A DNA stretch of 64,000 nucleotides from a virus, in the IMG/VR virus record IMGVR_UViG_3300024262_003767. The stretch is one strand, 5' to 3'. Below are positions 13,424 through 56,407 of the stretch, one piece after another (positions within the stretch are counted from its first letter, which is position 1; each line of letters opens with the position of its first letter). The translations under genes and the position numbers were made by a program. The notes beneath the pieces are model-generated. The model did no database searches. It was not told the origin of the DNA and was given only the letters and a program-made list of their open reading frames with translations.

Positions 13424-13771
13424 ATGAAAAGAAAATATAGTGATTATTTGGACGCATCAGGAAATTGGCAATTATTAGTAAATGGTGACGAAGATAGTTG
13501 GTGGGATTATAAAGGTGATTGTATTGAAAGAATTTTAGAATTATTAAGTTCAGAAAGTGGTTTACAGGAATTTGATTATGAAGGTGACATTCTAGATTTA
13601 GAAGATCTTAAATATGAATTGGAAAGTCTTTCTGAAGAAGATTTTTATACTGTATTAGAAGAAATAAAAAGAGAGTGTGATTTTTCAGGTGATATTAAAA
13701 TGTTTAATATATCAGATGAAGATGAAATAGATTTCTTAAAAGAAGAAAAAGAGTATTACGATTTCGATTAA
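13424..13771 (+). CDS. Highly acidic hypothetical protein
   Basis: ORF track; D/E-rich. Confidence 0.5.
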   Translation: MKRKYSDYLDASGNWQLLVNGDEDSWWDYKGDCIERILELLSSESGLQEFDYEGDILDLEDLKYELESLSEEDFYTVLEEIKRECDFSGDIKMFNISDEDEIDFLKEEKEYYDFD

Positions 13772-14487
13772 TCTTTATCCAACATAAATAAAGCCAAATC
13801 ATATTTTATTGGATCTTGGCTATCCATCTTTTTCAAATTATTAGTTAGTTCAATAACTGATTTCCAATCGTTTTGATTTCTGGTAAGTAATCCAAATTCT
13901 CTTGACATGTTTCCAACATGAACATCAAGAGGTATGTATAAATTGGACTTATCTATATTTTTCCATAATCCAAAATCTACATTATCATCTCTAACCATCC
14001 ATCTTAAAAACATATTTAATCTTTTTGCCGCTGAATTGTTTTCTACGTTGGAAAGGTGTTTTTCACTTCGTTGTTCATGTTCAAGAGAGAAAAAAATTTT
14101 CCAAAATCTAATTAAACTATTTTTTATATCATTCGTGAAAAATGTTTCCAATCCACTATAATTCAAATAAATATATCTTAGAGATTTCATATAATATATC
14201 ATATCAATATCCTTAATTGTTCTATGTTTAAATCCTTTAAGATTATTAAAATCTCCATATAAAATATAATTGTGAGGTTCATTATTCATTAATTCCATTA
14301 ATGAGTTTGACTTATTTATGATAATATCTCTCCTACCAAATGATATTATAGAAGTTAAAAATGCTGAGATTTCTATATCATAGAAACATTCAAATCTATG
14401 TGGAATTGATATTGGGTCATTTTCTATGAATAATTTATTATTATTAATTTTATAACTTTCTTCAAGTTGCTCTTTTATGTCTTTCAT
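13768..14487 (-). CDS. TIGR02757/DUF2400-like protein (HhH-GPD glycosylase-related fold)
   Basis: FGRRD, KRLNMFLRWMVRDDNVDFGLW, IPLDVHV pattern as recalled for this family. Confidence 0.5.
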   Translation of the reverse strand: MKDIKEQLEESYKINNNKLFIENDPISIPHRFECFYDIEISAFLTSIISFGRRDIIINKSNSLMELMNNEPHNYILYGDFNNLKGFKHRTIKDIDMIYYMKSLRYIYLNYSGLETFFTNDIKNSLIRFWKIFFSLEHEQRSEKHLSNVENNSAAKRLNMFLRWMVRDDNVDFGLWKNIDKSNLYIPLDVHVGNMSREFGLLTRNQNDWKSVIELTNNLKKMDSQDPIKYDLALFMLDKD

Positions 14488-14500: not shown

Positions 14501-15514
14501 TTATAAATTTTTTAAATTATATTTTAAATACCAATCTATAAATTTCTTTATTCCAATTTTGTATGATGTTGAAGGTTTAAAATCTATTGCTTCTTCCAGT
14601 AATGTGGTGTCTGCACCAGCATATCGAATATTTGTTATGTTGTTTCCAACAAAATCTTTTTCTGACTCTTTATTTAAATTTTTTTCAATCTCTTTAATAA
14701 AATCCATAATATTAATTGGTTCAGAATTACCAATATTATAAATTTTACATAAACCTATACTATTATCCTTCATTAATAAATAAATGCTTTTTACAACATC
14801 ATCAATATAAGTAAAATCTCTATAAATTTTACCATCATTATAAATTGTTATTGGTTTATTATTTATTATTTTTTTAGTAAAAATATAAGCGGCACTATCT
14901 GGTCTACCCCAAGGACCATAAACACTAAATAATCTCATACCTATTGTTTTAATGTTATGTATATGGCTATATGTGTGAGCCATTAATTCGTTAGATTTTT
15001 TAGTTGATGCACACATAGATATTGGTAAATTGGTGTTGTCTGTTTCTTTTAATAATATTTTACTTCTATCTGCTGTTAATCCATATACTGAAGATGCGCT
15101 TGCATACATTATTTTATCTACACCATAATCTTTTGATATTTCTAAAACACTATTAAACCCATGAATATTAATATTAATAAATTTGCTTGGATATACTTCA
15201 CTTAATTTTATTCCCGTAAGAGCAGCAAGATGTATAACAATTTTTACATGAAATTCTGAAAATATTTCTCTTAACCTTTTTGTATCGTTAATTTCTACAT
15301 ACGAAAAATCAAAATTTGAATATTTTTTACTTGTTACTGCTCTACCAATTTCTATTGTATCTATTCCTAATTCTTTAAGTCTATCTAATTTAATAGTATT
15401 ACTATAACCTATTTCTTCAAGAAAATCAACGCCAATAACATCTTCACCTTGTTCAATTAAATATTTTGCCAAATTAAACCCTACAAATCCAGCAACACCA
15501 GTAATTAGTATCAT
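14501..15514 (-). CDS. Extended SDR NAD-dependent sugar-nucleotide epimerase (UDP-glucuronate 4-epimerase-like) with CxxxK in place of YxxxK
   Basis: ILITGVAGFVGFNL, YASASSVYG, PISMCASTKKSNELMAHTYSH; start moved to ATG at 15514. Confidence 0.75.
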   Translation of the reverse strand: MILITGVAGFVGFNLAKYLIEQGEDVIGVDFLEEIGYSNTIKLDRLKELGIDTIEIGRAVTSKKYSNFDFSYVEINDTKRLREIFSEFHVKIVIHLAALTGIKLSEVYPSKFININIHGFNSVLEISKDYGVDKIMYASASSVYGLTADRSKILLKETDNTNLPISMCASTKKSNELMAHTYSHIHNIKTIGMRLFSVYGPWGRPDSAAYIFTKKIINNKPITIYNDGKIYRDFTYIDDVVKSIYLLMKDNSIGLCKIYNIGNSEPINIMDFIKEIEKNLNKESEKDFVGNNITNIRYAGADTTLLEEAIDFKPSTSYKIGIKKFIDWYLKYNLKNL

Positions 15515-15535
15515 AATTTTTTGATGTTTTATTTT

Positions 15536-15543
15536 TATATATT
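15536..15543 (-). promoter_or_regulatory. TATATATT box
   Basis: 21 nt upstream of the epimerase ATG at 15514. Confidence 0.4.
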
Positions 15544-15604
15544 GATTTTTTATAAATAAAAAATAATTTTTAATATATAGATAGAGAAAAAATAACAATT
15601 TCTA

Positions 15605-16657: not shown

Positions 16658-16986
16658 AATATTTAAAAGTTTACGAAGAACACACCAAAAAGTATATGCC
16701 TATCTGTATATGGATTGGAGAAGGTGAGGATAGTTGGGATAGTTATTTTTCTGATGATATTGAATTTGATTTTGATGAGGCTCAAACTCGGTTATCAACT
16801 ATGAGAAGCGATTGGGAAAAGAATCAACCTGATGTGTATGATCATTATAAATTATCATTTATGGTTATACCATATTACAAATATGTTGCTATTCAAGATA
16901 TCGAAAAAGGTAGTGAGATAATGGAGTTATTAAATGATAATGAAAGATTAAATTTATTGATACAGTCAAAAAAATATAATTTATGA
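16654..16986 (+). CDS. Hypothetical protein
   Basis: ORF track; 4-nt ATGA overlap with upstream gene; DDIEFDFDEA; ends KKYNL. Confidence 0.5.
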   Translation: MKYLKVYEEHTKKYMPICIWIGEGEDSWDSYFSDDIEFDFDEAQTRLSTMRSDWEKNQPDVYDHYKLSFMVIPYYKYVAIQDIEKGSEIMELLNDNERLNLLIQSKKYNL

Positions 16987-17408
16987 AAAAATTTGAAGAA
17001 TTTAAAATTAATGAATCTTCAACACTCAAATACTCTGTTGTTGGAAGATTTATGACTAATAATGTTAAAAAATGGTTTTTTTCTGAGAATGACAATTTTG
17101 CTGAACTTAATTATTGGAACAAGAATCCAGATTATGCTTTTGAATTTAAACTCAAAAATTTCGATAAAGATATAATATCAAGGGTTGAAAAAATGAGAGA
17201 TTTTTTTAACTTAAAAAGAGATTGGAAAATAGTAGCAATAACATCAAGTAGAGTAGGGTTTTATTTTCATATAAAATCTGATGATATGCCTATAATCTTA
17301 GAAAGATTAAAAGAAATAGATCCTGAAAATATTAAAACAATTGATAGTCTTTTAAAAGGTTTAGAACAACGAAAAATATTAAATACTGCTAATAAATATA
17401 ATTTATAA
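16983..17408 (+). CDS. Hypothetical protein
   Basis: ORF track; 4-nt overlap with upstream gene; ends ANKYNL. Confidence 0.5.
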   Translation: MKKFEEFKINESSTLKYSVVGRFMTNNVKKWFFSENDNFAELNYWNKNPDYAFEFKLKNFDKDIISRVEKMRDFFNLKRDWKIVAITSSRVGFYFHIKSDDMPIILERLKEIDPENIKTIDSLLKGLEQRKILNTANKYNL

Positions 17409-24949: not shown

Positions 24950-25249
24950 TTACCTCTCTTTTTTTAATCGTTTTGTTTTTTGTTTTCGTAATTGCCTTCG
25001 TAATGCTTCAGTTGCCATATCAATTGAACGTTCAAAGTTTTCAGATTGTTTTTTTGAATATAAAGAACAACCTTGACAATTTAATTTAATTTCAACAATT
25101 TTATTTTCAGGTTTATTCCCTATTCCTAATATTACGTCAACATCTATAATATGTTGATGATGTTCTGTTAATTTTTTAATTTTTTCTTTTATAAAAAAAA
25201 CGAGTTTATTGTCTGTTTTAAAATGAACAGATTCAATGTTTAAATTCAT
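24950..25249 (-). CDS. hpf: Ribosome hibernation promoting factor (short HPF/RaiA)
   Basis: MNLNIESVHFKTDNKLVFFIKEKIKKL ... ATEALRRQLRKQKTK; matches short HPFs over the full length. Confidence 0.85.
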   Translation of the reverse strand: MNLNIESVHFKTDNKLVFFIKEKIKKLTEHHQHIIDVDVILGIGNKPENKIVEIKLNCQGCSLYSKKQSENFERSIDMATEALRRQLRKQKTKRLKKER

Positions 25250-27361: not shown

Positions 27362-28216
27362 TTCACCTTCCCAAACAATTTTATATTCATATTTACCTGG
27401 TAGTAGTATAATTTCTCTTTGATTTGTATGGTAATATTGTGTTGGTAATTTCTGTACGTCAACTAGTACATCTTTAGGTTGTACTTCCATCATAATAACA
27501 AAAGGTGGTGATGATGGTTGTTCATCCACAAATCTTCTAGCCACTAATATATTTGTAGTCCAAGATGTCGACATATTGAAATCGGATATAACTTTTTCAC
27601 CAACTTTGTATGGTGGGGTTTTTTTTGAAAAATGTTTTATTTGAACTTCTTCAATACCTTTATAAATCTTTAAAGGTTTATCTGGTTTAAAAGGTTTTAA
27701 TTCGTCTATAATATCTTGTGTTAATTTTGATAATAACAAAGAGCCAGAACCTATATATGAATATAACCAATCATCAGTTTTTTCAGATAATTCAACATTT
27801 ATCCTTTCAGGTGTATGTTTATCATATTTAGTAAATCCTCCAATGTAACGAAAAGATATCACATCTCCATTTTTAATTCTTGCTAACCATTCACCTGTTA
27901 TTGAATGTTTATAAAAATAACCAGAATAATCATCAACATCAACTTCTTCATCTTCACTAAATCCAAAAAAATCTACAATTTGTTTATATAGAGGTTTTTT
28001 TGTTTTAATTTGATAGATATATTCACTATTTATATCAGATGCGTCTGCTCTATTTGTTAAATAGATTCTTTTTAAATGATTTAGATTACTAAAATCTATA
28101 TCTTCTAATTTTAATGGTTCATCAGAATATAAATATAAATTTCCATTATATGTTTTTTGATCGTAATCTACTTCATTATAATCTACAAGTTCAAATAATT
28201 TGAATTTAGTTATCAT
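27353..28216 (-). CDS. Candidate ADP-ribosyltransferase (C3/Vip2-like R-S-E class, variant K-STS-QxE) with unknown N-terminal domain
   Basis: KIYKG (aa 183-187), FNMSTSW (aa 213-219), TNQREIILLPGKYEYKI (aa 264-280; compare the C3 exoenzyme QxE ARTT loop as recalled, roughly Q.E.LLPR....Y.I). 11-nt overlap with the CCA-enzyme gene. Confidence 0.4.
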   Translation of the reverse strand: MITKFKLFELVDYNEVDYDQKTYNGNLYLYSDEPLKLEDIDFSNLNHLKRIYLTNRADASDINSEYIYQIKTKKPLYKQIVDFFGFSEDEEVDVDDYSGYFYKHSITGEWLARIKNGDVISFRYIGGFTKYDKHTPERINVELSEKTDDWLYSYIGSGSLLLSKLTQDIIDELKPFKPDKPLKIYKGIEEVQIKHFSKKTPPYKVGEKVISDFNMSTSWTTNILVARRFVDEQPSSPPFVIMMEVQPKDVLVDVQKLPTQYYHTNQREIILLPGKYEYKIVWEGELN

Positions 28217-29465
28217 TCATAAGATATTCATTTTTGAAACGCACAATCTCTCGTCTTTTCTTTTCTATTTCAATTTCAATTCCTTTGAAACCTTCAGCAG
28301 CTAAATCATTACCATTAACCACAAATCCATCATTACAATAATCAACAAATGGTTTATAGAATTCTTCACCCAAAAACTCATAAATTAAATCATCATCAAT
28401 ATGATATTGATTTTTCATTTTAGCCAAACCGTAAACATTTGAAACGTCAATGTTTTTAAATGATTTCCAATGTAAATCTAATTCCTTCTCAAGTTTGAGC
28501 AAAAATTCAATCTGGTTCACTAACTTGGAACTAAATTTCAATTCACTAATCATATATTTTCTCAATTTACGAATATCATTATCACGAAGTAAATGTGCAA
28601 ATAATATTGCGGAAATAGGTTTTGGTGTAAATCCATCGGGAGATATTTTCAATTTGGGAAACATTTGTTCCCACATATCATATTCAGTTAATAGTCTGAT
28701 ATAATTTTCTAATATTTTGTTTCCGCCTTTTTCTGCGTGTTCAATTACCTTATTCCATTCTTCATGTATTCTTTCTTGTGATACATCTTCTTTGGTACTT
28801 ATACCACGTAGTCTGTTATCACTTTTAATGGCTCTTGATGTCTCAGGTGATATGATACCACCTTTTCTACCTTGGGCTCTTGCAGCGAATCTAAATACTC
28901 TTAAAATTCTTAATCTATCTTCTTTAAATCTCTCAGCAGGATCACCAACAGCACGTATAACATTATTTTCAATATCTTTAACTCCACCAACCAAATCTAC
29001 AATTTCTTTTTTATTTATATCATAGAAAAGAGCATTGATAGTTAAATCTCTACGTTTAACATCATCTTCGATTGTAATATGGTTTCCAATTTCTACTTTA
29101 TCATCATCACCTTTTGTATCTCTACCTCCAGAAATATCTTTTCTAAAAGTTGCTAATTCGTGTCCGAGTGGTTCATCTTCAGTATAAATTCTAAGTACGC
29201 CAAAATTTTTACCTTGTTCATCAGAAACATTCCAACCTTTCAAAATTCTTTTACTTTCTTCTGGTAGAGCATTTGTGACTAAATCAAAATCATGTGGTAT
29301 CTTTTTTTGCAAAAAATCACGAACCGCTCCACCAACAACATAGATATCTTTACCAGCATTATTGAAGGCTCTTGATATTTCTTTAATGTCATAAGGAATA
29401 GGCATCTCAACAGAGATAGTATTTTCAGTTATAAATTCTAAATATTTTTTTAATTTTTCTACCAT
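28206..29465 (-). CDS. cca: tRNA nucleotidyltransferase (CCA-adding enzyme / poly(A) polymerase family)
   Basis: VVGGAVRDFLQKKIPHDFDLVT, RRDLTINALFYD, ERFKEDRLRILRVFRFAAR. Confidence 0.85.
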   Translation of the reverse strand: MVEKLKKYLEFITENTISVEMPIPYDIKEISRAFNNAGKDIYVVGGAVRDFLQKKIPHDFDLVTNALPEESKRILKGWNVSDEQGKNFGVLRIYTEDEPLGHELATFRKDISGGRDTKGDDDKVEIGNHITIEDDVKRRDLTINALFYDINKKEIVDLVGGVKDIENNVIRAVGDPAERFKEDRLRILRVFRFAARAQGRKGGIISPETSRAIKSDNRLRGISTKEDVSQERIHEEWNKVIEHAEKGGNKILENYIRLLTEYDMWEQMFPKLKISPDGFTPKPISAILFAHLLRDNDIRKLRKYMISELKFSSKLVNQIEFLLKLEKELDLHWKSFKNIDVSNVYGLAKMKNQYHIDDDLIYEFLGEEFYKPFVDYCNDGFVVNGNDLAAEGFKGIEIEIEKKRREIVRFKNEYLMNDN

Positions 29466-29529: not shown

Positions 29530-30435
29530 ATGAAAATAAAATTATTTGAAAATTTTGGGGGTGACACTATATTAGATAAACCTTTTGTTAAAAAAATAAG
29601 AGGTAAATATTTTTTACCAAATGTTGACTTTACCTGTTTTGATTTGAATTGTCTTAAAACCAGCAAAAAATTATCTACACTTAATTATTCATCACTTATT
29701 AGATTTTATTTATTTGTTTGGTTGTTAAAATATAATGGTACTGATGATTGGACTAATTATATTATTAGTGTTTTGAAAGATCCATCTAATCCAACATATG
29801 ATAAAGTGTGGAGAAATTTAAATCAGATGGGAAATAATAACGCAGTTCTCAAATATTTTAAATCTAAACTTGGGTTAAATATAAAAGATAATAAAGATGA
29901 TAATATTGATACTCTCACCAAAATGGATGAAATGAAAGATATGCTATTTAATGATATGAATTTTAGAGAAATAACATCTATTGTAAGTGATTTAACTAAA
30001 AAGGCAACAGAAAGTGAAACTAATGTTAAATTTTTCTTGAAAAGAATATGGGGTAAATATTATAAGATTAACGACCCTACTGATGCGGAAGATATAAAAG
30101 GTGTTGATTTATGGAGGTTGAATATTAAAACTGGTGATAGAGATAGATTACAAGTTAAAAATATTAGTGAAAGTGTAAGTGTTAATGTGTCTGGTGAAAC
30201 AATTGCGATTAAACCTTCAAGAATAGATCTAAGAGATTACTATTCAGGTACAGATACTTTAAAATTTGACTATTTAATTTTATATGATAAATTTAGAGAA
30301 AAATTGTGGGTTATAAATGGTAAAGCCATTTTCAAAATTAAGAAATATGATAGTATGGTTTTAATTATTTTGAAAAAATGGGATCCTAAATATAATCCTA
30401 TGAAAGAGTATGATATACCTAAAAGATTTACTTAA
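29530..30435 (+). CDS. Hypothetical protein
   Basis: ORF track; TATATATA box 22 nt upstream. Confidence 0.5.
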
Positions 30436-31357
30436 TAGATTCTAAATAAGATTCATATGTCATTTTAATACCTTCTTCTAGAGAATATTTATGTTTCCAA
30501 CCTAAATTGTGTAATTTATCAACATTCAATAATTTTCTTGGTGTACCATCAGGTTTAGTTGTATCATATTTAATTTCACCTTCATAACCAATAACGTTTT
30601 TCATTATTTCAACTAATTCTGTAATCGACACATCTTCACCTGTTCCAATATTTACAATTTCACCATCTTCATATGTTTGCATCAAATAAAAACACGCATC
30701 AGCAACATCATCAACATATAAAAATTCACGTTTTGGTGTTCCTGTTCCCCACATTTCAATAAATGGTGTGTTGTTTATTTTAGCTTCATGAACTTTTCTA
30801 ATTAACGCAGGAAAAACGTGAGATGTTTCTAAATTATAATTATCATTTGGTCCATATAAATTTGTTGGCATCATTGAGATAAATTTAGTGCCATATTGAT
30901 TGTTATAACTTTGGCACATTTTAATTCCTGCAATTTTTGCAGTTGCATAAGCGTCATTAGTTGGTTCTAAGTAACCACTCATCAATTCAGATTCTTCTAT
31001 TGGTTGTTTTGCAAATTTTGGATAAATACAAGAACTACCTAAAAACAACAATTTTTTAACACCAAATACACAAGAATTATGAATTAAATTGTTTTGTATT
31101 TGTAAATTATCATAAATAAATTCTGCTGGATAATCTTTATTTGCCATTATACCACCAACTTTAGCCGCTGCGATAAAAACATAATCTGGTTTTTCTTCTT
31201 CAAAAAATTTTTGAGTATCGATTTGATTTTTTAAATCCAGTTGTGAATGTGTTCTAGTTATTATATTTTCATATCCTTCAGATTGTAATTTTCTAACAAT
31301 TGCACTTCCAACCATACCTCTATGACCTGCAACATAAATTTTATCATATTTATCCAT
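30428..31357 (-). CDS. fcl: GDP-L-fucose synthase (GDP-4-keto-6-deoxymannose 3,5-epimerase/4-reductase)
   Basis: [63 protein letters not shown]; full-length similarity. Confidence 0.9.
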
Positions 31358-31366: not shown

Positions 31367-31774
31367 TTATTTTTTTTGAAACTTTTTTATACGCTTAATA
31401 GTTTCTTTAAGATCTTCTTCATAATATAATATTAAAAAGTCAACATCCCTCTCATTAATATTATATCTTTTCATTAAATCATCTATCTCTTCTTTTTTAA
31501 ATTTAGATTTGATTTTTGTGGTTTTATTTATTTTAGTTTGCCAATACCAACCAGGTATATTTGTTGTACTACCAAATATTGCGAACCAAATATCTAATGA
31601 TGATGGTTTATTTATATTTTTATTATTAAAAAATTGTGCTTTTTTTATATCCTTATAGGCGAATTTGCGATTGAGAATAAAAAAATTTCTTTCTTTATCA
31701 TCATCAGTAATAAACCTATATTTATCTTTATCTTTGAAGATGATGTTTCCTAAACTTATAAAATCAATTGCCAT
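31367..31774 (-). CDS. Hypothetical protein
   Basis: ORF track; 1-nt overlap with upstream kinase gene. Confidence 0.5.
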   Translation of the reverse strand: MAIDFISLGNIIFKDKDKYRFITDDDKERNFFILNRKFAYKDIKKAQFFNNKNINKPSSLDIWFAIFGSTTNIPGWYWQTKINKTTKIKSKFKKEEIDDLMKRYNINERDVDFLILYYEEDLKETIKRIKKFQKK

Positions 31775-33954
31775 TAATAAAATTGTTTAAATATTTTTGA
31801 GATTTTTTCTTTTGTTATTGGTTTTACAATTTGAAAATCTATATTCTTCTCTACCATATCTGTGGTAGATATTGTAATTATAGTTAACTCTTCATCTATT
31901 TGTTTTAATTTTTCTATGAAATCTAGTATATTAATATTTGATAAACTCATATCTATAAATATTGCATCAATATCACCTAATTTTTCTTCAAGTACATCAA
32001 GTGTTTCCTTTGATGATAGTGTCCATTTAATTTTAACATTCATAGATTTTAACATTATACCTAATAATGAATAGTTTTCAGGTATATCTTCTAATACTAT
32101 CACTTTAATATTAGAAAAATCATACACAATTTTATTAACTTGTTTTGTTTGAATATTTTGAACTTCTTGTAATGGAAGAGTAAAAAAGAATGTGCTTCCT
32201 TCTTTTTGAGTTGAATCTACCCATATATTTCCACCAAGTATATTAACTATACTTTTTGCGATAGATAATCCCAATCCTGTACCTTGGTATTGTTTTTTTG
32301 ATGATGCATCAACTTGCATAAATTTATCAAAAACTATTTCTAATTTATCTTCTGGAATACCAATACCAGTATCTTCAACAAAGAATGTTATAATATTGTC
32401 TTTTATTCTTGTACCAATTCTTATATGTCCACTTTCAGTAAATTTAATTGCATTACTAATCAAATTATATAATACCTGTTTTAATCTAAGAAAATCAGAC
32501 ACTATTATTTCATTATCTTCTCGTTTTTCGAAAGTTAATTTTACCGAATCTATATTCTTTCTAATATTTATATCTATAAAAATTTCTTCTAATTCTTCAA
32601 ATAAATCATTGATTGGGAATCGTTCATATAATAGTTCTAAATTTAATTCACCTGCTTCAATTTTAGCATAATCTAATATGTTATTTAATAATTCTTCTAA
32701 ATGTTTTGCATTAGCATTTATAGTTTTAAGAAATTTTTTATTATTGGTAGTATCAAACTTATCATCTAATAATATATCTGAAAAGCCTATAATCGAATTC
32801 ATTGGCGTTCTTATTTCGTGACTCATATTTGCCAAAAATAGTGACTTTAAAAGATCACTTTTTTCTGCTTCTATTTTTGATTTTTCTAATTCTATTTTAA
32901 TATTTTCTTGTTCTGTAATATCTTTACAATGAATTGCAATATACTCCGTTGAGCCATTATCATTTAAAATGGGATATATGTAATTTTCAAAATATTTATT
33001 ATTTATAACATCAATAAAATGTACTGGTTTGCCTGTAAATATTGCTTCAAGTGTTCTTTTTCTTTTGGGTTCTACACTCTCTTTAGGTAAAATCTGTGAT
33101 ATGTTCACTCCTACTAATTCTTCTCTTGTTTTATTAAAATATTTACAACCTCTATCATTTATTGCTAATAACTCACCTACTTTATTTGTTAAATAAGATG
33201 CACTTAATGTTGAATTTATAATATCTAAGTGTTGTCTCTCCTTTATTTTCATATCAGTAATATCTTGAAATATGGTAACAAAACGATGTGAGTTTTGTTT
33301 ATATGCATCAATTAAAAACCATTTCTGAAAAATATATGAATATTTTTCAAAATGTAAAGTCTTATTATCAGTAAATATTTGAGAATATATCCTTATCCAT
33401 TCACTCGAATCTTTATCTAATATTTCAGTTATATTTTTTCCAATAATTTCTGAATCTAAACCTGTGGTTTCGGTGAACGCTTTATTTATTCTAACAAATT
33501 TATAATCAATAGGTTTGCCACTATTATCAAATATCATTTCATGTAGAGAAAATGCTCGACTCATATTATCAATAATCTTTTCAAGTTCTTCACTTTTAAA
33601 AATATAATCTTTACTTATTTGAGATAAATGTTTTTCATCTTGATATACAACATGTACAAAATTTTCCTCACCTCGATAGATATAATTATATCTCCAACGA
33701 TTAAATTTATCGTCTTTATACTCTTTTAATTCGTGTGTCATACATTCTCCACTATCATACACTTTTAATATTTTATCATAAATACCAAAGTCGATTACTT
33801 TAGAAAAAACATCAACCAATTTTTTATCAATAACATCATATTCAATTCTTTCTACCGTATAAAAATTTTCTGATACTTCGTGAAAATATATATCTTCATC
33901 GATAATTTTATATGTGATAGAAACAAAATCAAAAATTTTTTCAAAATTTTTCAT
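31774..33954 (-). CDS. Soluble PAS-PAS hybrid sensor histidine kinase with C-terminal receiver domain
   Basis: H-box FLANMSHEIRTPMNSIIGF, N-box NLISNAIKFT, G1 DTGIGI, G2 GTGLGLSI. Receiver IKVIVLED..AIFIDMSL..IITIST..IVKPI. No TM segment. Confidence 0.85.
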   Translation of the reverse strand: MKNFEKIFDFVSITYKIIDEDIYFHEVSENFYTVERIEYDVIDKKLVDVFSKVIDFGIYDKILKVYDSGECMTHELKEYKDDKFNRWRYNYIYRGEENFVHVVYQDEKHLSQISKDYIFKSEELEKIIDNMSRAFSLHEMIFDNSGKPIDYKFVRINKAFTETTGLDSEIIGKNITEILDKDSSEWIRIYSQIFTDNKTLHFEKYSYIFQKWFLIDAYKQNSHRFVTIFQDITDMKIKERQHLDIINSTLSASYLTNKVGELLAINDRGCKYFNKTREELVGVNISQILPKESVEPKRKRTLEAIFTGKPVHFIDVINNKYFENYIYPILNDNGSTEYIAIHCKDITEQENIKIELEKSKIEAEKSDLLKSLFLANMSHEIRTPMNSIIGFSDILLDDKFDTTNNKKFLKTINANAKHLEELLNNILDYAKIEAGELNLELLYERFPINDLFEELEEIFIDINIRKNIDSVKLTFEKREDNEIIVSDFLRLKQVLYNLISNAIKFTESGHIRIGTRIKDNIITFFVEDTGIGIPEDKLEIVFDKFMQVDASSKKQYQGTGLGLSIAKSIVNILGGNIWVDSTQKEGSTFFFTLPLQEVQNIQTKQVNKIVYDFSNIKVIVLEDIPENYSLLGIMLKSMNVKIKWTLSSKETLDVLEEKLGDIDAIFIDMSLSNINILDFIEKLKQIDEELTIITISTTDMVEKNIDFQIVKPITKEKISKIFKQFY

Positions 33955-33955: not shown

Positions 33956-34525
33956 TCATTTTAATTTTTTGAAACAAACTCTACATAAAGGTTTATAACT
34001 TTCATTACCACCAATTTCTATTTGTTCTCCTTCGGTAACTATAATATTATCTTTAAATCTACTATTTACAATGGCTTTTTTGTTTTTACATTCAGAACAT
34101 ATCGTTTTTATTTCTTCTATACTATCTGCCATCGTCATTAAATATTTTGAACCTTCAAATGGTTCCAATCTATAGTCTGATCTTAAACCATAACATATTA
34201 CAGGTATGTTTAATATATCGACAATATCTGACAATTGAAAAATGTGGTCTTTTGTTAAAAATTGTGATTCGTCCACTAAAATAGCCTTTATTTCATATGC
34301 CATTGGTTTAACATATTGGTATATATTTAATTTTTTATCTACAGGAATTGCAGGTTTACTTAAACCTACCCGAGACTTAACCACACCTTCTCCATACCTA
34401 GTATCTAAGGCTGATGTGAAGATTAAAATTTTTTCATTATTCTCTTCATAATTATATGAAACTTTCAGTAAATCAAGGCTTTTACCAGCACCCATGCTGG
34501 AATATCGGAAAAATAATTTTGCCAT
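33956..34525 (-). CDS. tdk: Thymidine kinase
   Basis: P-loop SSMGAGKS, VDESQFL, zinc site CSECKNK..CRVCF. Confidence 0.9.
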   Translation of the reverse strand: MAKLFFRYSSMGAGKSLDLLKVSYNYEENNEKILIFTSALDTRYGEGVVKSRVGLSKPAIPVDKKLNIYQYVKPMAYEIKAILVDESQFLTKDHIFQLSDIVDILNIPVICYGLRSDYRLEPFEGSKYLMTMADSIEEIKTICSECKNKKAIVNSRFKDNIIVTEGEQIEIGGNESYKPLCRVCFKKLK

Positions 34526-34876: not shown

Positions 34877-34916
34877 AATAAAAAAAGGGAGATGAAAGTC
34901 TCCCTTTTTTTTATTT
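34876..34916. terminator. Bidirectional terminator
   Basis: aaataaaaaaa gggaga tgaaag tctccc ttttttttattt between convergent genes. Confidence 0.7.
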
Positions 34917-36869: not shown

Positions 36870-37331
36870 ATGATTACCATTTTTAAAATATATGAGACTT
36901 GGAATGATGATACCATAGATAAATCGTTATTTGTTAGTGGTCGTGCTAAACATAATCCTAAAGTAAAAAACGATATAATAGAGTATAAAACTGATAATGG
37001 TAAATATGTAGCAAAGATTAAAAAATTGTCAAATGGTAAGTTTATTTGCAAAGTATATAGAATAAGAGACGATGGTAGTAAAATTAGAATTAGAAAGAAA
37101 GTAAAAAAAACGTTACAAACCGCTCATAATTTTATTAGAGAATTTCTAAATGATAGACTTGAAGGTAAAAAAATTAAAAAATCTAAAAAGAAAGAAAACA
37201 AAAAACAAAAGGATGATGATCCTCTTGATAAATTATTTGTGGATATTGACGAACCTGGGTTTTCAGATTCAGATTTTGATTTTAGCGAACCTAAAAAACC
37301 AAGAAAAACTATAATTAGAAGGTTTACTTAA
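36870..37331 (+). CDS. Basic (Lys-rich) hypothetical protein
   Basis: ORF track; KKIKKSKKKENKKQK tract. Confidence 0.45.
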   Translation: MITIFKIYETWNDDTIDKSLFVSGRAKHNPKVKNDIIEYKTDNGKYVAKIKKLSNGKFICKVYRIRDDGSKIRIRKKVKKTLQTAHNFIREFLNDRLEGKKIKKSKKKENKKQKDDDPLDKLFVDIDEPGFSDSDFDFSEPKKPRKTIIRRFT

Positions 37332-38334
37332 TCTTATTTTCTAAAATATTTTCAATATTTTTAAATTGAGTGTAGGCTATTCTCAACATTTTTATATCAT
37401 TTTCCTTACAATATTTATTTTTAATTTTATCATTTTGTTTCGTATATTTTAATCTTTCTTCACCTCCAAAATGTTCAACAGATTTATAATGTTGTATACC
37501 ATCATATTCCACACACATATTAAGTTCAGGTAAATAAAAATCAAAATGTAAAACTTGTTTATTTTTACATCCATTGAAAGTATATTGAGGTTCAAATTTA
37601 ATATTATTTTCTTTCAAATAATTTAATATTATTTCTTCTCCTTTAGATTGTTTACAACCTGGACAACCAACACCTCGCAAAATAGCGTTTGGTGTTATTT
37701 CCCATATATTATCACATTGATTACATTTTATTTTAACTTTATTATTTGCTTTAATATATTTACCTATAACTTCATATTTATCACCATGTACATTAAAAAC
37801 ATCTTTGATAAATTGTTCAGGTGTTTTTCTTTGTTTTTCACCCTTTTCTTTTGCTGAACATTCTGGACATTCACATTTTGTGTGTGATAAATGATACGGT
37901 TTAATTTTCCATATATTTTCACATATTTTACACCTAACCTTTACTTTTGTATTAGCATTAATATAATCTGATAAAAGTTCATACTTATCACCATAGTTAT
38001 TATTAAATTCTTCTTTAAATTTTTCTGGGGTTTTTCTTTGTTTTAAAACTGCACATTGTTTACAACCTCTACCCCTTAATAATGAATTACCGTTAGTTTT
38101 CCATTTATATCCACATTCATTACATCTAACTTCTATTTCTGATTTAGAATTTATGTAAGGTGATAATGTTGTAAATTTATCACCATAATTTTCCTTTAGT
38201 CTTTTTTGAAACCTTTCTTCTGAAAAACTTTTTGGTGCTAATTCGTGTGTTTCCCTATATTTTTCTTTTAGTTTTTTAAGTATTTTTTCTTTATTTTTTA
38301 GATAATATTGTTTATGCCATTCCTTATTATACAT
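37324..38334 (-). CDS. Homing-endonuclease-like protein (three zinc-ribbon repeats + Vsr/DUF559-type nuclease core)
   Basis: 3x [VRC.EC/IC..W...P..L..G.GCP.C]; C-terminal HFDFYLPELNMCVEYDGIQHY; TATATATT box at 38350. Confidence 0.55.
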   Translation of the reverse strand: MYNKEWHKQYYLKNKEKILKKLKEKYRETHELAPKSFSEERFQKRLKENYGDKFTTLSPYINSKSEIEVRCNECGYKWKTNGNSLLRGRGCKQCAVLKQRKTPEKFKEEFNNNYGDKYELLSDYINANTKVKVRCKICENIWKIKPYHLSHTKCECPECSAKEKGEKQRKTPEQFIKDVFNVHGDKYEVIGKYIKANNKVKIKCNQCDNIWEITPNAILRGVGCPGCKQSKGEEIILNYLKENNIKFEPQYTFNGCKNKQVLHFDFYLPELNMCVEYDGIQHYKSVEHFGGEERLKYTKQNDKIKNKYCKENDIKMLRIAYTQFKNIENILENKIK

Positions 38335-39402: not shown

Positions 39403-39912
39403 ATGAATTGGTATGTAATACGAGTAGTAACTAGTAAAGAAAAGAAAACAAAAGAATTAATTGAAAAAGAATTGGAACTATATAAATTAGATAATAAAGT
39501 GTCTCAAATTTTGGTTCCAAGTAAGAAAGTGATGCAAATGAGAAATGGTAAAAAATATACTATTGAAAAGAATGATTTTCCAGGATATATTCTCATCGAA
39601 ACGGATAAAGTTGATGAACTAGTTTCAACTATTAAAAATGTTTCAAATGTTTTAGGGTTTTTAGGTGTGACTCACCCAGAACCACTAAGGCAAAGAGAGG
39701 TGGAAACAATCGTTGGTAGACAAAATAACACAATAGTTGAAGATAAATATTTTATTGGTGAAGTTGTAAAAGTCACCGACGGTCCTTTTAACTCATTTGT
39801 TGGTGAAATTATTCTAGTGAATGATAAGAAGAAAGCTGTAAAAGTGAACATTAAAGTTTTTGGACGTGATGTTCCAGTAGATTTGACTTATATTCAGATA
39901 GAAAAGAATTAG
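39403..39912 (+). CDS. nusG: Transcription termination/antitermination factor NusG
   Basis: NGN start NWYVIRVVTSKEKK; KOW GEVVKVTDGPFNSFVGEIILVNDKKKAVKVNIKVFGRDVPVDL. Confidence 0.85.
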   Translation: MNWYVIRVVTSKEKKTKELIEKELELYKLDNKVSQILVPSKKVMQMRNGKKYTIEKNDFPGYILIETDKVDELVSTIKNVSNVLGFLGVTHPEPLRQREVETIVGRQNNTIVEDKYFIGEVVKVTDGPFNSFVGEIILVNDKKKAVKVNIKVFGRDVPVDLTYIQIEKN

Positions 39913-39975: not shown

Positions 39976-41106
39976 TTATTCCTCTTTTTCTTTAACTAAG
40001 TTAAGATATATCTTTCTATCATCTTTGATAACAGAAATAACCTTAACTTTTACTTGATCACCTTTCGTTAATTTGGCATTATTCTTCACAAGGTATGTGG
40101 TTTGTATTAACCCCATAGTTTCATAGTCAAGTGAAATTAATGCTCCAAAATTTTTCACATCAATTACTTTTCCTGATAATATTTTACCTACTTTAATTTT
40201 ATCCCAAAGAGACTCTTTTAAAGATTGTGTTAGTATAATCTTTTGACTTTTTGTGATTTCCTTAACATAAAAATCAATTGCCATACCAGGTAGGATTTGG
40301 TGCCATCTATCTTGCCACTCAGTATTTATGTTCATTTTATGAATCATACCTGTAAGACAATTATTGAATTGAACAAATACTCCAAATGGTGTTGTTCCAG
40401 TAACTTCGCCTGCATAAACGACATCATTTTTTAGTTTTTTGATCTCTTCTGGTATAAGTGTCTTAAGATATTTTCTTCGTGAAACAACATAAACCCCCTT
40501 TTCTTGTTGCAATGTCTCTAACATCACATTTAGAGTTTCACCAATAATTGATTCAGGATTTGCGAGTTTATTAACATCAGCTAATGTATTTGGCATAAAC
40601 GCATCGATAGTTACATTATCCATATAAATATCAAGCATATAGCCTGCTGGTATTAATTCCTTCACCTTAGCAACAAGTGATAATCTTTCTTCATAATAAG
40701 TTTTCAATTTATTATGAACATTCATTTTAATTAATTCTGTAATAGATCCTCTTATTAAGAATGGATCGTCTTGAATTGATGTTATTAGTACATCAATTTG
40801 TGAACCAGGCTCTAACCCTATCACTAATTTTCCTTTTGGTGTGTCAACATAAATGTAGTCTTTATACCCAAAATCAACAGTTATTTCTGTATCATCTATA
40901 GATACTATCACACCTTTGATTATTTCCCCTTCTCTTACTTCTCTTAAATCAAGAAAAGTTTTTTCCATCATACGATAAAGATTTTGATAATCTTCAGTAA
41001 GATTAGATAAATCACCTTTTACTTTGATTATTTCTCTATCATTAGTTAGAAACGGAAAAGGATCAGGAAGTGATCCTACATTTACGCCTTCGATTAATTT
41101 CGACAT
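39976..41106 (-). CDS. rpsA: Ribosomal protein S1-like protein (four S1/OB domains, 376 aa)
   Basis: GEIIKGVIVSIDDTEITVDFG, GYMLDIYMDNVTIDAFMP, YAGEVTGTTPFGVFVQF..LTGMIH, LSGKVIDVKNFGALISL..GLI. Confidence 0.8.
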   Translation of the reverse strand: MSKLIEGVNVGSLPDPFPFLTNDREIIKVKGDLSNLTEDYQNLYRMMEKTFLDLREVREGEIIKGVIVSIDDTEITVDFGYKDYIYVDTPKGKLVIGLEPGSQIDVLITSIQDDPFLIRGSITELIKMNVHNKLKTYYEERLSLVAKVKELIPAGYMLDIYMDNVTIDAFMPNTLADVNKLANPESIIGETLNVMLETLQQEKGVYVVSRRKYLKTLIPEEIKKLKNDVVYAGEVTGTTPFGVFVQFNNCLTGMIHKMNINTEWQDRWHQILPGMAIDFYVKEITKSQKIILTQSLKESLWDKIKVGKILSGKVIDVKNFGALISLDYETMGLIQTTYLVKNNAKLTKGDQVKVKVISVIKDDRKIYLNLVKEKEE

Positions 41107-42205: not shown

Positions 42206-44050
42206 TTAAGTTGCTCTTATTTGCTCTGCTGGTGAACTTGTTACAGAACTTCGTGATTTCGTGTAAATTATTAACGTTTTACCTGCTTTTGGTTGCCATC
42301 CAGTATTTCCAATATTTACTGGTTTAATATTTGATGTATTAGATGAACTTAATGAACCATCATCCGTTATAGTTATACCATCTTCAACAAATCTAACATC
42401 TTCATAAAATGTGAACGTACCTGAGTATAATAATGTTTTTAATTTGTTGGCTTCTAACGCTATATAAAAATTATTATATCCCTTATCATATATTTTCTTT
42501 AGTACATTTAAATCATTTTCAGCAATTTTAAAATTAACTATACCTAATGTGAAATTATTTGTAGATTCTTTAAAAATTGATTTTTCAATTGATTCTGAAT
42601 CAGATTTAAATATTAATTTAACATCTGAACCTTTTGTTAATTCTGATAAATTAAAAGGTTGTAAACTTTTATTATTTATTAATTTTCCAAGTTTAAATTG
42701 AATCACATTATCAAACGGGGTTATAATTATGTTCAATAACCCCATACCTTTATAATTTTGTGGTTGTGAACTCTTTGGACTATTTACAATAACTTTACCA
42801 ACATCTATTAGAAGAGGATAAGGTATTTTTCTAATTTCAGTCACAAGAGGCTTAGTGCTAAAATCCCTATTAAGTTGAATTTGCTCTGGTTTAGCATTGT
42901 ATATCTTTAAATTATTAATATTTCCAACATCAAGAGAAATTAATCTTTTACCATATTTATGAATACTATCCCTAATTCCAAGTGTTGTAAATCTCACAAT
43001 TTGTGACATATCAACCAAATCAACAACTCTCATTGTAACTTTAATGGCAGCGGTTGTATTAGAGAATGTCATAATTGGTCTATAATATAATTTCTTTGTG
43101 AATATAGCTAAACCTAATGTTGGATCTTCTTCAACAGAAAATGTTTGTTTTGACGTTTGAATATTTTCTTCATAAAGATATACATCATATTCAAATTTTA
43201 CTCGTCTACCTTTTGTATATACATCTTCAATAAATTCGTTAAGATTCTCATTTGATTCACCATAAGTGCCATATATTTCAAAAAAATCACCTTCAGTAGA
43301 TTCTTCGACTTTAACTGCAAGAGTTTGATATTCAGGTGTTTGTGGTATAGACATTCTATACTCATTTGTGGCATAATAGTAATTCACCCCTAATATCGTA
43401 TCTTTACTAGTTAAAAATCTAAAATCTAAGAATATAGGTGCAGTTTGACTTAATCCTTCATGACTTGTTGTTAAATTATAATTTATAGTATTAGGTATTA
43501 CACTATTTGTGTTATCACTTAAAACTCGTTGATTAGATACGTAATTTATAGAAGGCACCTCAAATTCAAAATATTTACCCCATTCAATTTCATCATATAT
43601 GAATGGTATTGCCAAATTCAATAATGTTGAACCACTACGAGCATCTGTATTATCATAGAAAATGTTACTTAGATTATATGTTTTTGTATTATCAAATCCA
43701 TAAGCGAATGTTTTTAAATAAAATCCAACATAACCTTCTGTTTCAAAATTGTAATTTGTTGGTAAATAAACTCTTACCCTATCATATTGTATTGGTGCTG
43801 AACTATAATCTTGTTCTTGTAGATAATTATAACTATTATCAAATACGGTATATTTTCTTAAAACTGGATCGATTTGAAATAAGTTTCTACTTTTACTATT
43901 TAAAAGTGATGTTGAAAGGAAATTTTTCGTATTGTTTTCGTTAATATTTGTTATTATCTGATAATTCTCTGATATAAAATTATTACTATCAAATCCCCAC
44001 TCAATTAATACTTTTGGGTTTATTTTTATATACTTAGAAACAGTCGCCAT
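42206..44050 (-). CDS. Large virion-structural candidate (occupies the sheath position upstream of the tube-like gene)
   Basis: 614 aa, N/S/T/Y-rich and beta-rich. Position only; no sheath motif recognised. Confidence 0.55.
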   Translation of the reverse strand: MATVSKYIKINPKVLIEWGFDSNNFISENYQIITNINENNTKNFLSTSLLNSKSRNLFQIDPVLRKYTVFDNSYNYLQEQDYSSAPIQYDRVRVYLPTNYNFETEGYVGFYLKTFAYGFDNTKTYNLSNIFYDNTDARSGSTLLNLAIPFIYDEIEWGKYFEFEVPSINYVSNQRVLSDNTNSVIPNTINYNLTTSHEGLSQTAPIFLDFRFLTSKDTILGVNYYYATNEYRMSIPQTPEYQTLAVKVEESTEGDFFEIYGTYGESNENLNEFIEDVYTKGRRVKFEYDVYLYEENIQTSKQTFSVEEDPTLGLAIFTKKLYYRPIMTFSNTTAAIKVTMRVVDLVDMSQIVRFTTLGIRDSIHKYGKRLISLDVGNINNLKIYNAKPEQIQLNRDFSTKPLVTEIRKIPYPLLIDVGKVIVNSPKSSQPQNYKGMGLLNIIITPFDNVIQFKLGKLINNKSLQPFNLSELTKGSDVKLIFKSDSESIEKSIFKESTNNFTLGIVNFKIAENDLNVLKKIYDKGYNNFYIALEANKLKTLLYSGTFTFYEDVRFVEDGITITDDGSLSSSNTSNIKPVNIGNTGWQPKAGKTLIIYTKSRSSVTSSPAEQIRAT

Positions 44051-54567: not shown

Positions 54568-55134
54568 TTAATTTGATTTACTTACTTTAACTAAATTATC
54601 TGTGATAAATTCAGTTACAATTACTTGTGAATTTGTATCAATTTTTTCACCAGTTTCTGAAAGAGCGTCAATAGTTCTCAATGCGCCACGAATGGACATT
54701 TGAATTTTTCCTCTCTTATCTTTTCCTGGTATAACCAGATACACGGTTGCAGGTTGTTTCAATACATCATTTTTATCGATGTCATTTGGTGTTGCTTGAA
54801 GTTTTTTGAAACCGAACATAATAGATGCGAAGATGATAGTTAGAACTAAACCAGAACCAACCGAAATTATAATTGATAGCCAAGTATTATAACCTTGTTC
54901 AATGCAAAAAACACCTACCCAACCAAAGAATGCTAAAAAATTAATCAAACTTCTTAGAGTAAATGCTTCACCCATTATACCACTTGCACCATCAACATCA
55001 AAATCACCATCTACGTCACCTATACCATCAGCATCCATATCTGAATCCATTCCGAAAAAGGCAGAACCATTCAAAAATAAAAAAATCGCACCGAATACGA
55101 TTGCGATGATGTAAAATACTGTTAAAAGTGTCAT
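54568..55134 (-). CDS. YqiJ/NfeD-like membrane protein (TM helices + C-terminal OB-like domain)
   Basis: TM-acidic loop (DSDMDADGIGDVDGDFDVDG)-TM-TM, then KQPATVYLVIPGKDKRGKIQMSIRGALRTIDA; immediately upstream of the flotillin gene. Confidence 0.65.
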   Translation of the reverse strand: MTLLTVFYIIAIVFGAIFLFLNGSAFFGMDSDMDADGIGDVDGDFDVDGASGIMGEAFTLRSLINFLAFFGWVGVFCIEQGYNTWLSIIISVGSGLVLTIIFASIMFGFKKLQATPNDIDKNDVLKQPATVYLVIPGKDKRGKIQMSIRGALRTIDALSETGEKIDTNSQVIVTEFITDNLVKVSKSN

Positions 55135-55195
55135 TTGTGTTAATTTAGAGATTAAACTTAATTATTTATCTGTATTTCTTAGTAATCGAAAAATA

Positions 55196-55233
55196 AAAAG
55201 TTTAGAAATTTTAATTAAAATCACTAAACTTTT
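55196..55233 (-). terminator. Terminator between orf151 and the NfeD-flotillin pair
   Basis: aaaagtttag (55196-55205) pairs with ctaaactttt (55224-55233); 18-nt loop; T-rich tail on the minus strand. Confidence 0.5.
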
Positions 55234-55265
55234 ATACCCCATAAGGGTTTTTGATCACCTTTCAG

Positions 55266-55721
55266 TTATAAATTATATTTATCCATTTGATCCATTTGAT
55301 CTTTCACATTCTTTCTCAAATCATCCAAATTTGTGAGTTGTTGTCTTGGATGACGAATTTTCAGTCTATCAGATATTGCATCCAATATAAAAGGTTCTAT
55401 ATCTTGATATCCTTTATTTTCTACCATATCACTAATATCTTTTGGTAACCAAATTTGATAATATTTAAGTTCACTATCAAAATTTCCTCTTGCTTGCAAT
55501 CCTTGTATATTAGACATTCCTTGACGGTCTTTATTAATTTTTATCATCTTTTCAATACCTAGAACTTTTTTAAATCTACCATCTTTTTCTTCAATAAATT
55601 CAGGTCTTGCCACAAAAGCAAATAAGTCATGTTCTTTACTATTTGGATTCATATCAAATAGTTCTTGAAATACTTTTAAATCTTCTTCACTATATCCTTC
55701 AAAATATTTTAAATGTTCCAT
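55266..55721 (-). CDS. Hypothetical protein
   Basis: ORF track; ends MDKYNL. Confidence 0.5.
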   Translation of the reverse strand: MEHLKYFEGYSEEDLKVFQELFDMNPNSKEHDLFAFVARPEFIEEKDGRFKKVLGIEKMIKINKDRQGMSNIQGLQARGNFDSELKYYQIWLPKDISDMVENKGYQDIEPFILDAISDRLKIRHPRQQLTNLDDLRKNVKDQMDQMDKYNL

Positions 55722-56407
55722 TATATTACGTTTATTTCATTAGCCATACAAACTTCACCATAATCTTTGATAAGTTTGTCCATATCATCAAATGAGATAT
55801 ATGCAAATCCTTTTTTACCCCATTCTCTACCCCAAGAATTTTTAATTCTTATTAGTTTCTTTTTAACATTAACACCATCTAATAAATATGCGTGTCCGCC
55901 CATTTTATTTCCTGTTGGAGTTATAATACCTTCACTATTTGGAAAAAACATATCATAGTACCACCAAGTACCAACAACAACAGGACCTAATGTTAATAAT
56001 GCGTTTACTGTTGTGTCAATATCCCAAGCCCAATTATATCCATTAATATACCCTGCAGATTGTAAAACTTTAGCACCAGCTCTAACACTAGTTCCATCAT
56101 AATCTTCACCAGGCCAACGATCTATCTTTTGTGCTTCATTATATAAATATTCTGTATCATAAGGTGCTACTCCACCTTTTCTACTTGCTTTTTGTGTTAT
56201 TGGACCAGAGGCTAACCAATGTATCCAACTAAATGCAACACAATGAGGTTTATAACCTTGATTTCCCCACCATCCATTTGTCCACCAATATTTATAATCT
56301 ATACCTGGTAATTTTTTAGGTAGCATTGAACTAATTAGGAATTGATGATCCCTATCATCAGGTTTTATAAATCTACCTAATCTTGATTTTAATTGATTTT
56401 CATTCAT
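55721..56407 (-). CDS. Papain-like cysteine peptidase (C1 family)
   Basis: Catalytic-Cys context QGYKPHCVAFSW, His GGHAYLLDG, Asn/Trp IKNSWGREWGKKGFAYI. Confidence 0.7.
   Translation of the reverse strand: MNENQLKSRLGRFIKPDDRDHQFLISSMLPKKLPGIDYKYWWTNGWWGNQGYKPHCVAFSWIHWLASGPITQKASRKGGVAPYDTEYLYNEAQKIDRWPGEDYDGTSVRAGAKVLQSAGYINGYNWAWDIDTTVNALLTLGPVVVGTWWYYDMFFPNSEGIITPTGNKMGGHAYLLDGVNVKKKLIRIKNSWGREWGKKGFAYISFDDMDKLIKDYGEVCMANEINVI

Follow-up and report, generated by a model that had tools for sequence, protein, structure and literature searches.

What does a complete hybrid histidine kinase do in a virus of bacteria, and where would its signal go? The question is raised by a stretch of DNA of 64,000 nucleotides from the IMG/VR virus record IMGVR_UViG_3300024262_003767, referred to here in its full 64 kb as the window, which has a GC content of 26%. 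A single open reading frame (ORF) on its minus strand, at 31774-33954, had been picked out in an earlier note on the sequence as a cytoplasmic sensor kinase with its own receiver domain in a phage context. Taken together, sequence comparisons and structural models argue that this ORF encodes an active, soluble, intracellular hybrid sensor kinase of Mahaphage-like megaphages, with an output to a host relay or a phage partner. We regard this reading as probable, with appreciable room left for the alternatives weighed below. The gene and its domains are laid out as follows.

31774..33954, minus strand: hybrid sensor histidine kinase ORF, 726 aa from ATG to stop, in the order PAS-A, PAS-B, PAS-C, DHp, CA, receiver
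33640..33933, minus strand: PAS-A, residues 8-105, without a Pfam call; PAS topology of two strands, helices and three strands, predicted local distance difference test score (pLDDT) about 90
33259..33597, minus strand: PAS-B, residues 120-232, with a C-terminal DIT motif (D231-I-T)
32917..33237, minus strand: PAS-C, residues 240-346, a Pfam PAS_9/PAS_4 domain ending in D345-I346-T347
32656..32916, minus strand: DHp/HisKA helical hairpin, residues 347-433, with the predicted phospho-accepting H379 (codon 32818-32820)
32164..32625, minus strand: catalytic ATP-binding (CA) domain, residues 444-597, with N, G1, F and G2 boxes
31777..32106, minus strand: receiver, residues 617-726, with D668 (codon 31951-31953)

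The catalytic core displays every sequence feature that defines a HisKA class I kinase. Its DHp domain carries the H-box S-H379-E-I-R-T383-P, which includes the H-E-x-x-T phosphatase motif (E380, T383), and its CA domain carries the N-box (N497, N501), G1 (D528-x-G530-x-G532), the F-box (F542, F545) and G2 (G558-x-G560-L-G562). Pfam assigns HisKA to residues 370-435 (E 1e-20), HATPase_c to 487-596 (E 7e-31), PAS_9/PAS_4 to 254-350 (E 1.6e-13) together with a second, weaker PAS_9 stretch, and Response_reg to 618-717 (E 3.4e-8; 34.1 bits against a gathering cut-off of 30.2). The full-length AlphaFold2 monomer model, built from a 62-sequence alignment with a mean pLDDT of 82.6, places the DHp helices at 347-396 and 402-433; a second model covers residues 1-352 at a pLDDT of 89.9. 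No transmembrane segment was found in the protein, where the highest 19-residue Kyte-Doolittle mean is 1.32. The complete HisKA and HATPase core and the absence of a membrane span, both claimed in the earlier note, are thereby borne out, and the domain calls that it proposed as a check returned HisKA, HATPase_c, PAS and Response_reg with catalytic boxes that are not degenerate. NCBIfam yields partial matches to TorS, LuxQ, HrmK, ArcB and BarA (E 1e-62 to 1e-82). Because all of these score far under the family cut-offs (TorS, for example, at 279 bits against 676), the kinase is best described as a generic hybrid HisKA kinase and no ortholog of a named one. Judged from its sequence, the ORF is a soluble hybrid HisKA-class histidine kinase with all catalytic boxes intact.

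Conservation among relatives points in the same direction. In protein searches, close relatives come from metagenomes only, at 53-78% identity for P0002-P0013 and about 39-48% for P0014-P0023; beyond this family, identity falls to roughly 24-45% for other kinases. Among ten close members, identity to the window kinase is 65-94% in the DHp domain and 65-91% in CA, compared with 57-73% in PAS-B, 50-73% in PAS-C, 37-76% in the receiver and 16-70% in the N-terminal module. H379, E380, T383, N497, N501, D528, G530, G532, F542, F545, G558, G560 and G562 are invariant in all ten, the H-box and the CA boxes are also conserved across the 62 sequences, and the ORF is intact in every locus examined. Since DHp and CA stay 65-94% identical where the N-terminal module is only 16-70% so, the sequence comparison indicates strong purifying selection on the DHp-CA core.

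The input side changes quickly. Residues 1-115 are 53-70% identical in P0002-P0007 and 16-22% identical in P0008-P0012, and the N-terminal module is exchanged within the clade: a complete receiver occupies this position in P0009, and unrelated modules do so in P0008, P0010 and P0012. P0006 and P0011 carry further PAS or PocR domains. In the window kinase, both AlphaFold2 models display three PAS folds, at 8-105, 134-231 (preceded by a cap helix) and 252-345. The earlier note had described tandem PAS modules in the N-terminal 350 residues or so; the PAS content stands, and the number rises from two to three. PAS-B bears a widespread signature (F-x-L-H-E-M-x-F-D..G.P.DY.F..N.AF...TGL) in which, across 28 diverse sequences, Y151 never varies and N157, G165 and D231 reach at least 90% conservation. 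The same signature recurs in the kinases of the 735-kb phage LR756501 and of two phages of 640 and 678 kb. PAS-B and PAS-C each terminate in D-I-T, and in the model PAS-C runs directly into the 50-residue helix that bears H379. PAS-kinase linkers usually show just this PAS-to-DHp signalling geometry, with a D-I-T that runs into the DHp helix.

The receiver combines a conserved active site with an altered fold. All five expected residues are present, namely E622 and D623 (within L621-E622-D623), the putative acceptor D668 (IFIDMSL), S696 (IITIST) and K711 with P712 (VKPI). These are the positions that the earlier note had listed, all of which could be located; what the model adds is the shape around them. 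Strands beta4 (691-696) and beta5 (707-710) are linked by a 10-residue coil, and helix alpha4 is absent, so that the fold departs from the canonical (beta-alpha)5 receiver. A profile alignment places 14 residues between the beta4 Thr/Ser and the beta5 Lys, whereas CheY and 97 of 98 other hybrid kinases, among them those of other megaphages, have a spacing of 21. Of the 22 clade receivers, 19 align at both positions, and these have a spacing of 13-18, mostly 14-15. According to the alignment and the model, loss of alpha4 is a deletion of 6-7 residues common to the 23-member clade and seen in none of the 98 other hybrid kinases.

Across the 62 sequences D668, K711 and P712 are at least 90% conserved, and S696 is present in eight of the ten close relatives and lost in two. 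Helix alpha1 agrees with the N-Y-x-L-L consensus of bacterial hybrid kinases, which is consistent with a retained interface between DHp and receiver. Receivers normally use the alpha4-beta5-alpha5 surface as their output face. As the loss of alpha4 strips most of that face, the modelled receiver would probably serve as a phosphoryl relay or sink rather than as a conformational switch.

The clade appears to belong to phages. A search of 185,579 species-representative cellular genomes turned up no member of the kinase family; the best matches there are 26-45% identical and the higher values concern core fragments only. Named cellular homologs from the protein search are mostly from Bacteroidales or other Bacteroidota, roughly 29-40% identical over 52-83% of the query. 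In a neighbour-joining tree of the DHp-CA core, computed without support values, the 23 family members group together. The kinases of the 735-kb phage and of the 640- and 678-kb phages fall among bacterial sequences, outside the clade of the window, which suggests separate acquisitions, at least three of PAS hybrid kinases by megaphages if the tree is followed. The kinase gene has a GC content at third codon positions of 0.125, and its relative synonymous codon usage correlates with the rest of the window at r = 0.93 (reference genes average 0.89). Because codon usage and third-position GC equal those of the rest of the window, the gene is a long-term, fully ameliorated resident.

Two further genes of the window help to place it.

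42206..44050, minus strand: 614-aa orphan protein, a lineage marker, with tblastn relatives in only 6 of 50,697 phage records
46956-49472, minus strand: ClpB/ClpC-like double AAA+ ATPase, 838 aa, phrog_4871 at E 2.6e-260

The six records that match the orphan are LR756500-04 and LR745206, all of them uncultured huge phages of 462-735 kb, and the orphan also occurs in the related loci L001, L003, L009 and L010. The ClpB-like ATPase is 60% identical to proteins of LR756502 and LR745206, Mahaphage genomes of about 640 kb each. The same gene order, including a relative of the kinase, recurs on the 501,337-bp IMG/VR viral contig IMGVR_UViG_3300044712_000732, which came only from an alignment-based scan; a single-protein scan of IMG/VR returned nothing. 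Megablast of 24 kb of the window against the 50,697 phage records gave no match. From its clade-restricted proteins and gene order, the window is assigned to a Mahaphage-like megaphage. The genomes above 634 kb are assigned to the Mahaphage clade, with predicted Bacteroidetes hosts, in a study whose main text makes no mention of kinases (PMC7162821).

The kinase is embedded in a compact unit of four genes, preceded by a terminator-like site.

34880..34911: bidirectional hairpin resembling an intrinsic terminator, with a 13-14-bp stem and T runs on both strands; precedes the unit and closes off the upstream genes
33956..34525, minus strand: thymidine kinase (TK), first gene of the unit, Pfam TK E 6.6e-46
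31367..31774, minus strand: p135, a conserved protein of 135 aa whose function is not known, without His
30428..31357, minus strand: NAD-dependent sugar-nucleotide epimerase/reductase, last gene of the unit, Pfam Epimerase E 2.8e-66

The junctions are tight: 1 nt separates the TGA stop of TK from the kinase ATG, the stop of the kinase and the start of p135 share bases (TAATG), and the epimerase begins 9 nt further on. Terminator-like sites are more numerous in the window than expected (5 found vs 1.1), and the promoter of the unit should lie between about 34526 and 34660. A sigma-70 promoter scan was uninformative (55 sites vs 52.9 expected), and its model does not cover Bacteroidota or phage promoters.

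Gene order around the kinase is shared by six independent loci, in the sequence S1, NusG, radical SAM, TK-kinase-p135-epimerase, CCA enzyme and RNaseH-like gene, with kinases that are 43-100% identical. Some genes are missing in some loci, and the kinase-p135 pair is the sole invariant adjacency. TK lies directly upstream of the kinase in L001, L002, L003, L007/L008 and L010 and does not do so in L009; the epimerase follows p135 in five of the six (L001, L002, L003, L009 and L010) and is absent from L007/L008. A kinase position kept down to 43% identity, an invariant core, a fast-changing input and a clade-specific receiver together form the pattern expected of a functional, adaptively tuned sensor.

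The invariant neighbour p135 has a strongly conserved N-terminal half (IDFI-L-NIIFKDK-KY...FFILNRKF...AQFFN). Homologs occur in LR756501 and other Mahaphages, with faint ones in Prevotella Lak megaphages; two further records match as well. One homolog is mapped at L011 4001-4393. In the 735-kb phage LR756501, the homolog sits between radical SAM and epimerase genes with no kinase beside it, and the phage's own kinase lies about 67 kb away on the circular genome. Because p135 occupies the radical SAM-epimerase backbone there without a kinase, it is a backbone gene next to which the kinase was inserted in the lineage of the window. No Pfam, PHROG or PDB match was obtained for p135. A role for it as an Hpt-like or output partner of the kinase was considered and rejected, given its lack of His, the absence of a family match and the kinase-free locus of the 735-kb phage. 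A likeness to the T4 gp62 clamp-loader subunit was equally unsupported in PHROGs and in a PDB-sequence profile search, in which no clamp-loader chain matched.

How would such a protein work? Histidine kinases of this class are usually homodimers, and the phage kinase presumably forms one and autophosphorylates on H379. The PAS domains would bind or sense an intracellular cue, and this cue would set the balance between kinase and phosphatase activity. The phosphoryl group would pass from H379 to D668 within the dimer and then leave to an acceptor encoded outside the window, most likely a host Hpt protein or response regulator. Through such a host acceptor, the phage could make host gene expression, or the phage programme itself, depend on the physiology of the host. 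The alternative acceptor would be a phage-encoded single-domain receiver of the kind found in L010, whose contig encodes at 16822-17178 on the plus strand a stand-alone CheY-like receiver of 118 aa with DD, D, T and K all present (Pfam E 1.5e-11), 5 kb downstream of the L010 kinase, between the CCA enzyme and the RNaseH-like gene. The kinase is predicted to be transcribed together with TK, p135 and the epimerase and to be translationally coupled to TK and p135. Co-transcription with TK suggests that it would be expressed alongside genes of nucleotide metabolism.

Several results weigh against this reading of an active kinase with an output. When the 64 kb were scanned in six frames with receiver and Hpt profiles built locally, only the kinase's own receiver was recovered, with the limit that the Hpt profile was built from two sequences only and is weak, so that a divergent Hpt could escape it. 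HxxKG motifs occur twice in the window, inside the CCA-adding enzyme and inside an endonuclease. The earlier observation that no Hpt protein or response regulator is visible nearby is confirmed by these searches, and with no Hpt or acceptor in 64 kb the output step of the kinase is conjecture. No cofactor or ligand signature emerged in any of the three PAS domains, which lack the LOV motif GxNCRFLQ with its adduct Cys, the CXXCH of c-heme PAS domains and a FixL/DOS-type proximal His on F-alpha; the inspection for flavin- and heme-binding residues advised in the earlier note has thus come out negative. The receiver is the least typical part of the protein, with its marginal Pfam score, its missing alpha4 and an acceptor Asp that is N in P0009 and E in P0012 (D668 is kept in eight of ten close relatives), and this could mean that the protein can do without phosphotransfer through its receiver. 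Virion hallmark genes (capsid, terminase or portal) are absent from the 64 kb, so that the phage context claimed at the outset, and its Mahaphage-like identity, are deduced from clade-specific marker genes and synteny. A Bacteroidota host is predicted for the Mahaphage lineage rather than for the contig itself. Finally, a literature search found no dedicated functional or biochemical study of any phage histidine kinase.

The main rival explanation keeps the protein active and reverses the flow. The receiver would drain a host Hpt, or the DHp domain would dephosphorylate a host regulator, and a stress or defence pathway of the host would be silenced during infection. The suggestion in the earlier note that the kinase could feed into or jam host phosphorelays stays a hypothesis. 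Reverse operation is known from hybrid kinases such as LuxQ, and LuxQ is the second-best NCBIfam partial match of the window kinase. The invariant H379-E380-x-x-T383 phosphatase motif, the lack of a dedicated downstream partner in the window and a receiver whose missing output face suits a sink better than a switch all fit this idea. Yet the full ATP apparatus (N, G1, F and G2) is invariant, which would be superfluous in a pure phosphatase or sink, and three conserved PAS domains speak for regulated rather than constitutive signalling. Forward and reverse phosphoryl flow are not told apart by the present evidence, and we consider the silencing of host pathways unlikely as the full account, though it is to be taken seriously. 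A circuit internal to the phage, in which a receiver or regulator encoded elsewhere in a genome of several hundred kilobases would control developmental timing, strikes us as rather improbable. In its favour, the window covers 64 kb of a genome that probably exceeds 400 kb, the stand-alone receiver of L010 lies close to its kinase, and a further receiver is present at the N-terminus of the kinases of P0009 and of the 640/678-kb phages. However, no stand-alone receiver was found in the window or within about 10 kb of the kinase in L001-L003, L007 and L009, and its occurrence is sporadic rather than conserved with the kinase.

The remaining explanations deny the protein a role in the phage, or deny the phage itself. 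That the contig is cellular, or that the kinase is a recent host-derived passenger without a phage-specific role, might be argued from the missing virion genes, from the many cellular-type genes (such as those for NAPRTase, the ClpB-like ATPase, NusG and S1) and from one relative's contig, which is filed under the NCBI assembly GCA_029940505.1. Against this stand the relatives of the 614-aa marker and of p135 in huge-phage and Lak genomes (for p135, with the two further records), the same gene order on the 501-kb viral contig, the density of homing endonucleases, the absence of the family from the reference cellular genomes and the ameliorated codon usage. Moreover, a locus position conserved at 43% to 100% identity excludes a recent passenger, and we hold the explanation as a whole to be very improbable. 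A pseudo-kinase or relic, with the fold kept and signalling lost, seems to us the least credible of all. An eroded receiver that has lost alpha4, with the acceptor Asp replaced in two of ten relatives, and the lack of a partner nearby would agree with decay, but all DHp and CA catalytic residues are invariant in ten of ten relatives, the core is better conserved than any other region of the protein, and the ORF has remained intact wherever it was examined.

A broader proposal can be put forward only tentatively, and we would not expect it to hold in full. The megaphage lineage would have domesticated a hybrid kinase as a fixed core gene, re-engineered its receiver by deleting alpha4 and swapped its N-terminal input module more than once. 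The kinase would then read the metabolic or redox state of the host and drive a phosphorelay, via hijacked host Hpt proteins and regulators or via a phage receiver, and thereby time the infection programme. This would be the first two-component phosphorelay operated by a phage.

The remaining genes of the window include two groups of mapped features.

1422-2321 (plus strand), 5658-6491 (minus strand), 7839-8660 (minus strand), 37324-38334 (minus strand) and 61267-62148 (minus strand): homing, HNH or GIY-YIG-type endonuclease genes, at least five
24950-25249 (minus strand), 28206-29465 (minus strand), 39403-39912 (plus strand) and 39976-41106 (minus strand): S30AE ribosome hibernation factor, CCA-adding enzyme, NusG-like antiterminator and S1-domain protein, respectively

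The DUF723-type endonuclease gene at 37324-38334 has a counterpart that adjoins the kinase of the 678-kb phage. Translation and transcription genes such as those for S30AE, the CCA enzyme, the NusG-like protein and S1 are typical of huge phages, and a tRNA-synthetase fragment occurs in one relative's contig. On the minus strand at 58112-62848, a NUMOD3/DUF7487 homing-endonuclease-like ORF (61267-62148) is inserted between the genes for a 1055-aa SbcC-like ATPase and for a Metallophos SbcD-like nuclease (62192-62848). At 50077-52078, also on the minus strand, a NAPRTase gene (E 2e-45) is directly followed by an isochorismatase/nicotinamidase-like gene; this NAD-salvage pair may act against host defences that deplete NAD. 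A minus-strand cluster at 53034-57583 encodes a 501-aa SPFH/Band-7 protein and two peptidases, one papain-like (C1) and one insulinase-like (M16). Besides the epimerase of the kinase unit (30428-31357, minus strand), a separate sugar-nucleotide epimerase/dehydratase gene lies at 14501-15598 (minus strand) and a gene for a DUF2400 protein at 13768-14487 (minus strand). With these three genes the phage may direct the modification of DNA, of a surface glycan or of a nucleotide sugar.

The significance of the kinase lies in what it would allow if active. Very large phages would then operate a phosphorylation-based sensing system of their own within the host cell and would possess a direct viral route to inject signals into the dense two-component networks of Bacteroidota, or to drain signals from them. 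Phages are known to eavesdrop on host signals through one-component receptors, for example VqmA of VP882. A soluble protein with defined H379 and D668 sites renders the question directly testable in vitro.

How common such proteins are in phages can be estimated from database searches. The earlier note had called two-component proteins rare in phages, and with the kinase as a tblastn query any match at all appears in 171 of 50,697 phage records, which agrees with that statement. Many of the matches listed are bacterial assembly records or short unannotated contigs, such as Salmonella enterica whole-genome shotgun records and the multi-contig sets of 'Listeria phage LM' and 'Acinetobacter phage MD-2021a'. 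Given these bacterial records, raw kinase counts in phage databases probably overstate the frequency. A Foldseek search of a viral structure library returned 47 matches, of which most of the top-ranked ones come from eukaryotic giant viruses.

Among cellular proteins, the window kinase is closest to bacterial cytoplasmic multi-PAS HisKA hybrid kinases, especially the 'PAS domain S-box protein' of Bacteroidales and Bacteroidota, with which it shares architecture, catalytic boxes and the PAS-B signature. It differs from bacterial hybrid kinases in a receiver without alpha4, in being encoded by a phage clade and in a family that is absent from reference cellular genomes. The TorS/LuxQ/ArcB/BarA class is resembled by the core, whereas the window kinase has no transmembrane segment, periplasmic sensor or fused Hpt. 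Bacteroides-type hybrid two-component systems differ as well, since the window kinase has neither a transmembrane segment nor a helix-turn-helix/AraC domain and ends with its receiver.

Among viruses, the kinases of LR756501 (735 kb; 737 aa) and of P0027/P0028 (640/678-kb contigs; 775 aa) are likewise soluble PAS-HisKA-HATPase-receiver proteins of huge phages. They are 30-34% identical to the window kinase, have canonical receivers with 21-residue spacing and stand in different neighbourhoods; those of P0027/P0028 carry the additional N-terminal receiver. The Agrobacterium jumbo phage Atu_ph07 (490 kb) encodes a 'multi-sensor signal transduction histidine kinase', and several 'uncultured Caudovirales phage' entries likewise contain HisKA/HATPase proteins, some with PAS domains. 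These annotated phage kinases are 11-20% identical, shorter or different in architecture, and none falls in the clade of the window. Eukaryotic giant viruses (EsV-1, FirrV-1, klosneuviruses and marseilleviruses) encode hybrid kinases too, with Foldseek E values of 4e-41 to 1e-16 and 12-27% identity. These belong to another virus realm with eukaryotic hosts, and no shared ancestry is implied beyond the kinase superfamily. For EsV-1 and other giant viruses, it has been proposed that their hybrid kinases sense host or environmental cues for activation (PMC12993054). The closest functional precedent for a phage-encoded PAS sensor is VqmA of vibriophage VP882, whose PAS domain makes it a receptor for DPO, an autoinducer of the host. 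This protein is a one-component PAS-HTH (helix-turn-helix) transcription factor and not a kinase, and its likeness to the window kinase is that of a generic PAS fold at 10% identity. Phage kinases are rare and not unprecedented; what is new here is a phage-restricted, syntenically fixed clade that combines a truncated receiver with rapidly exchanged input modules.

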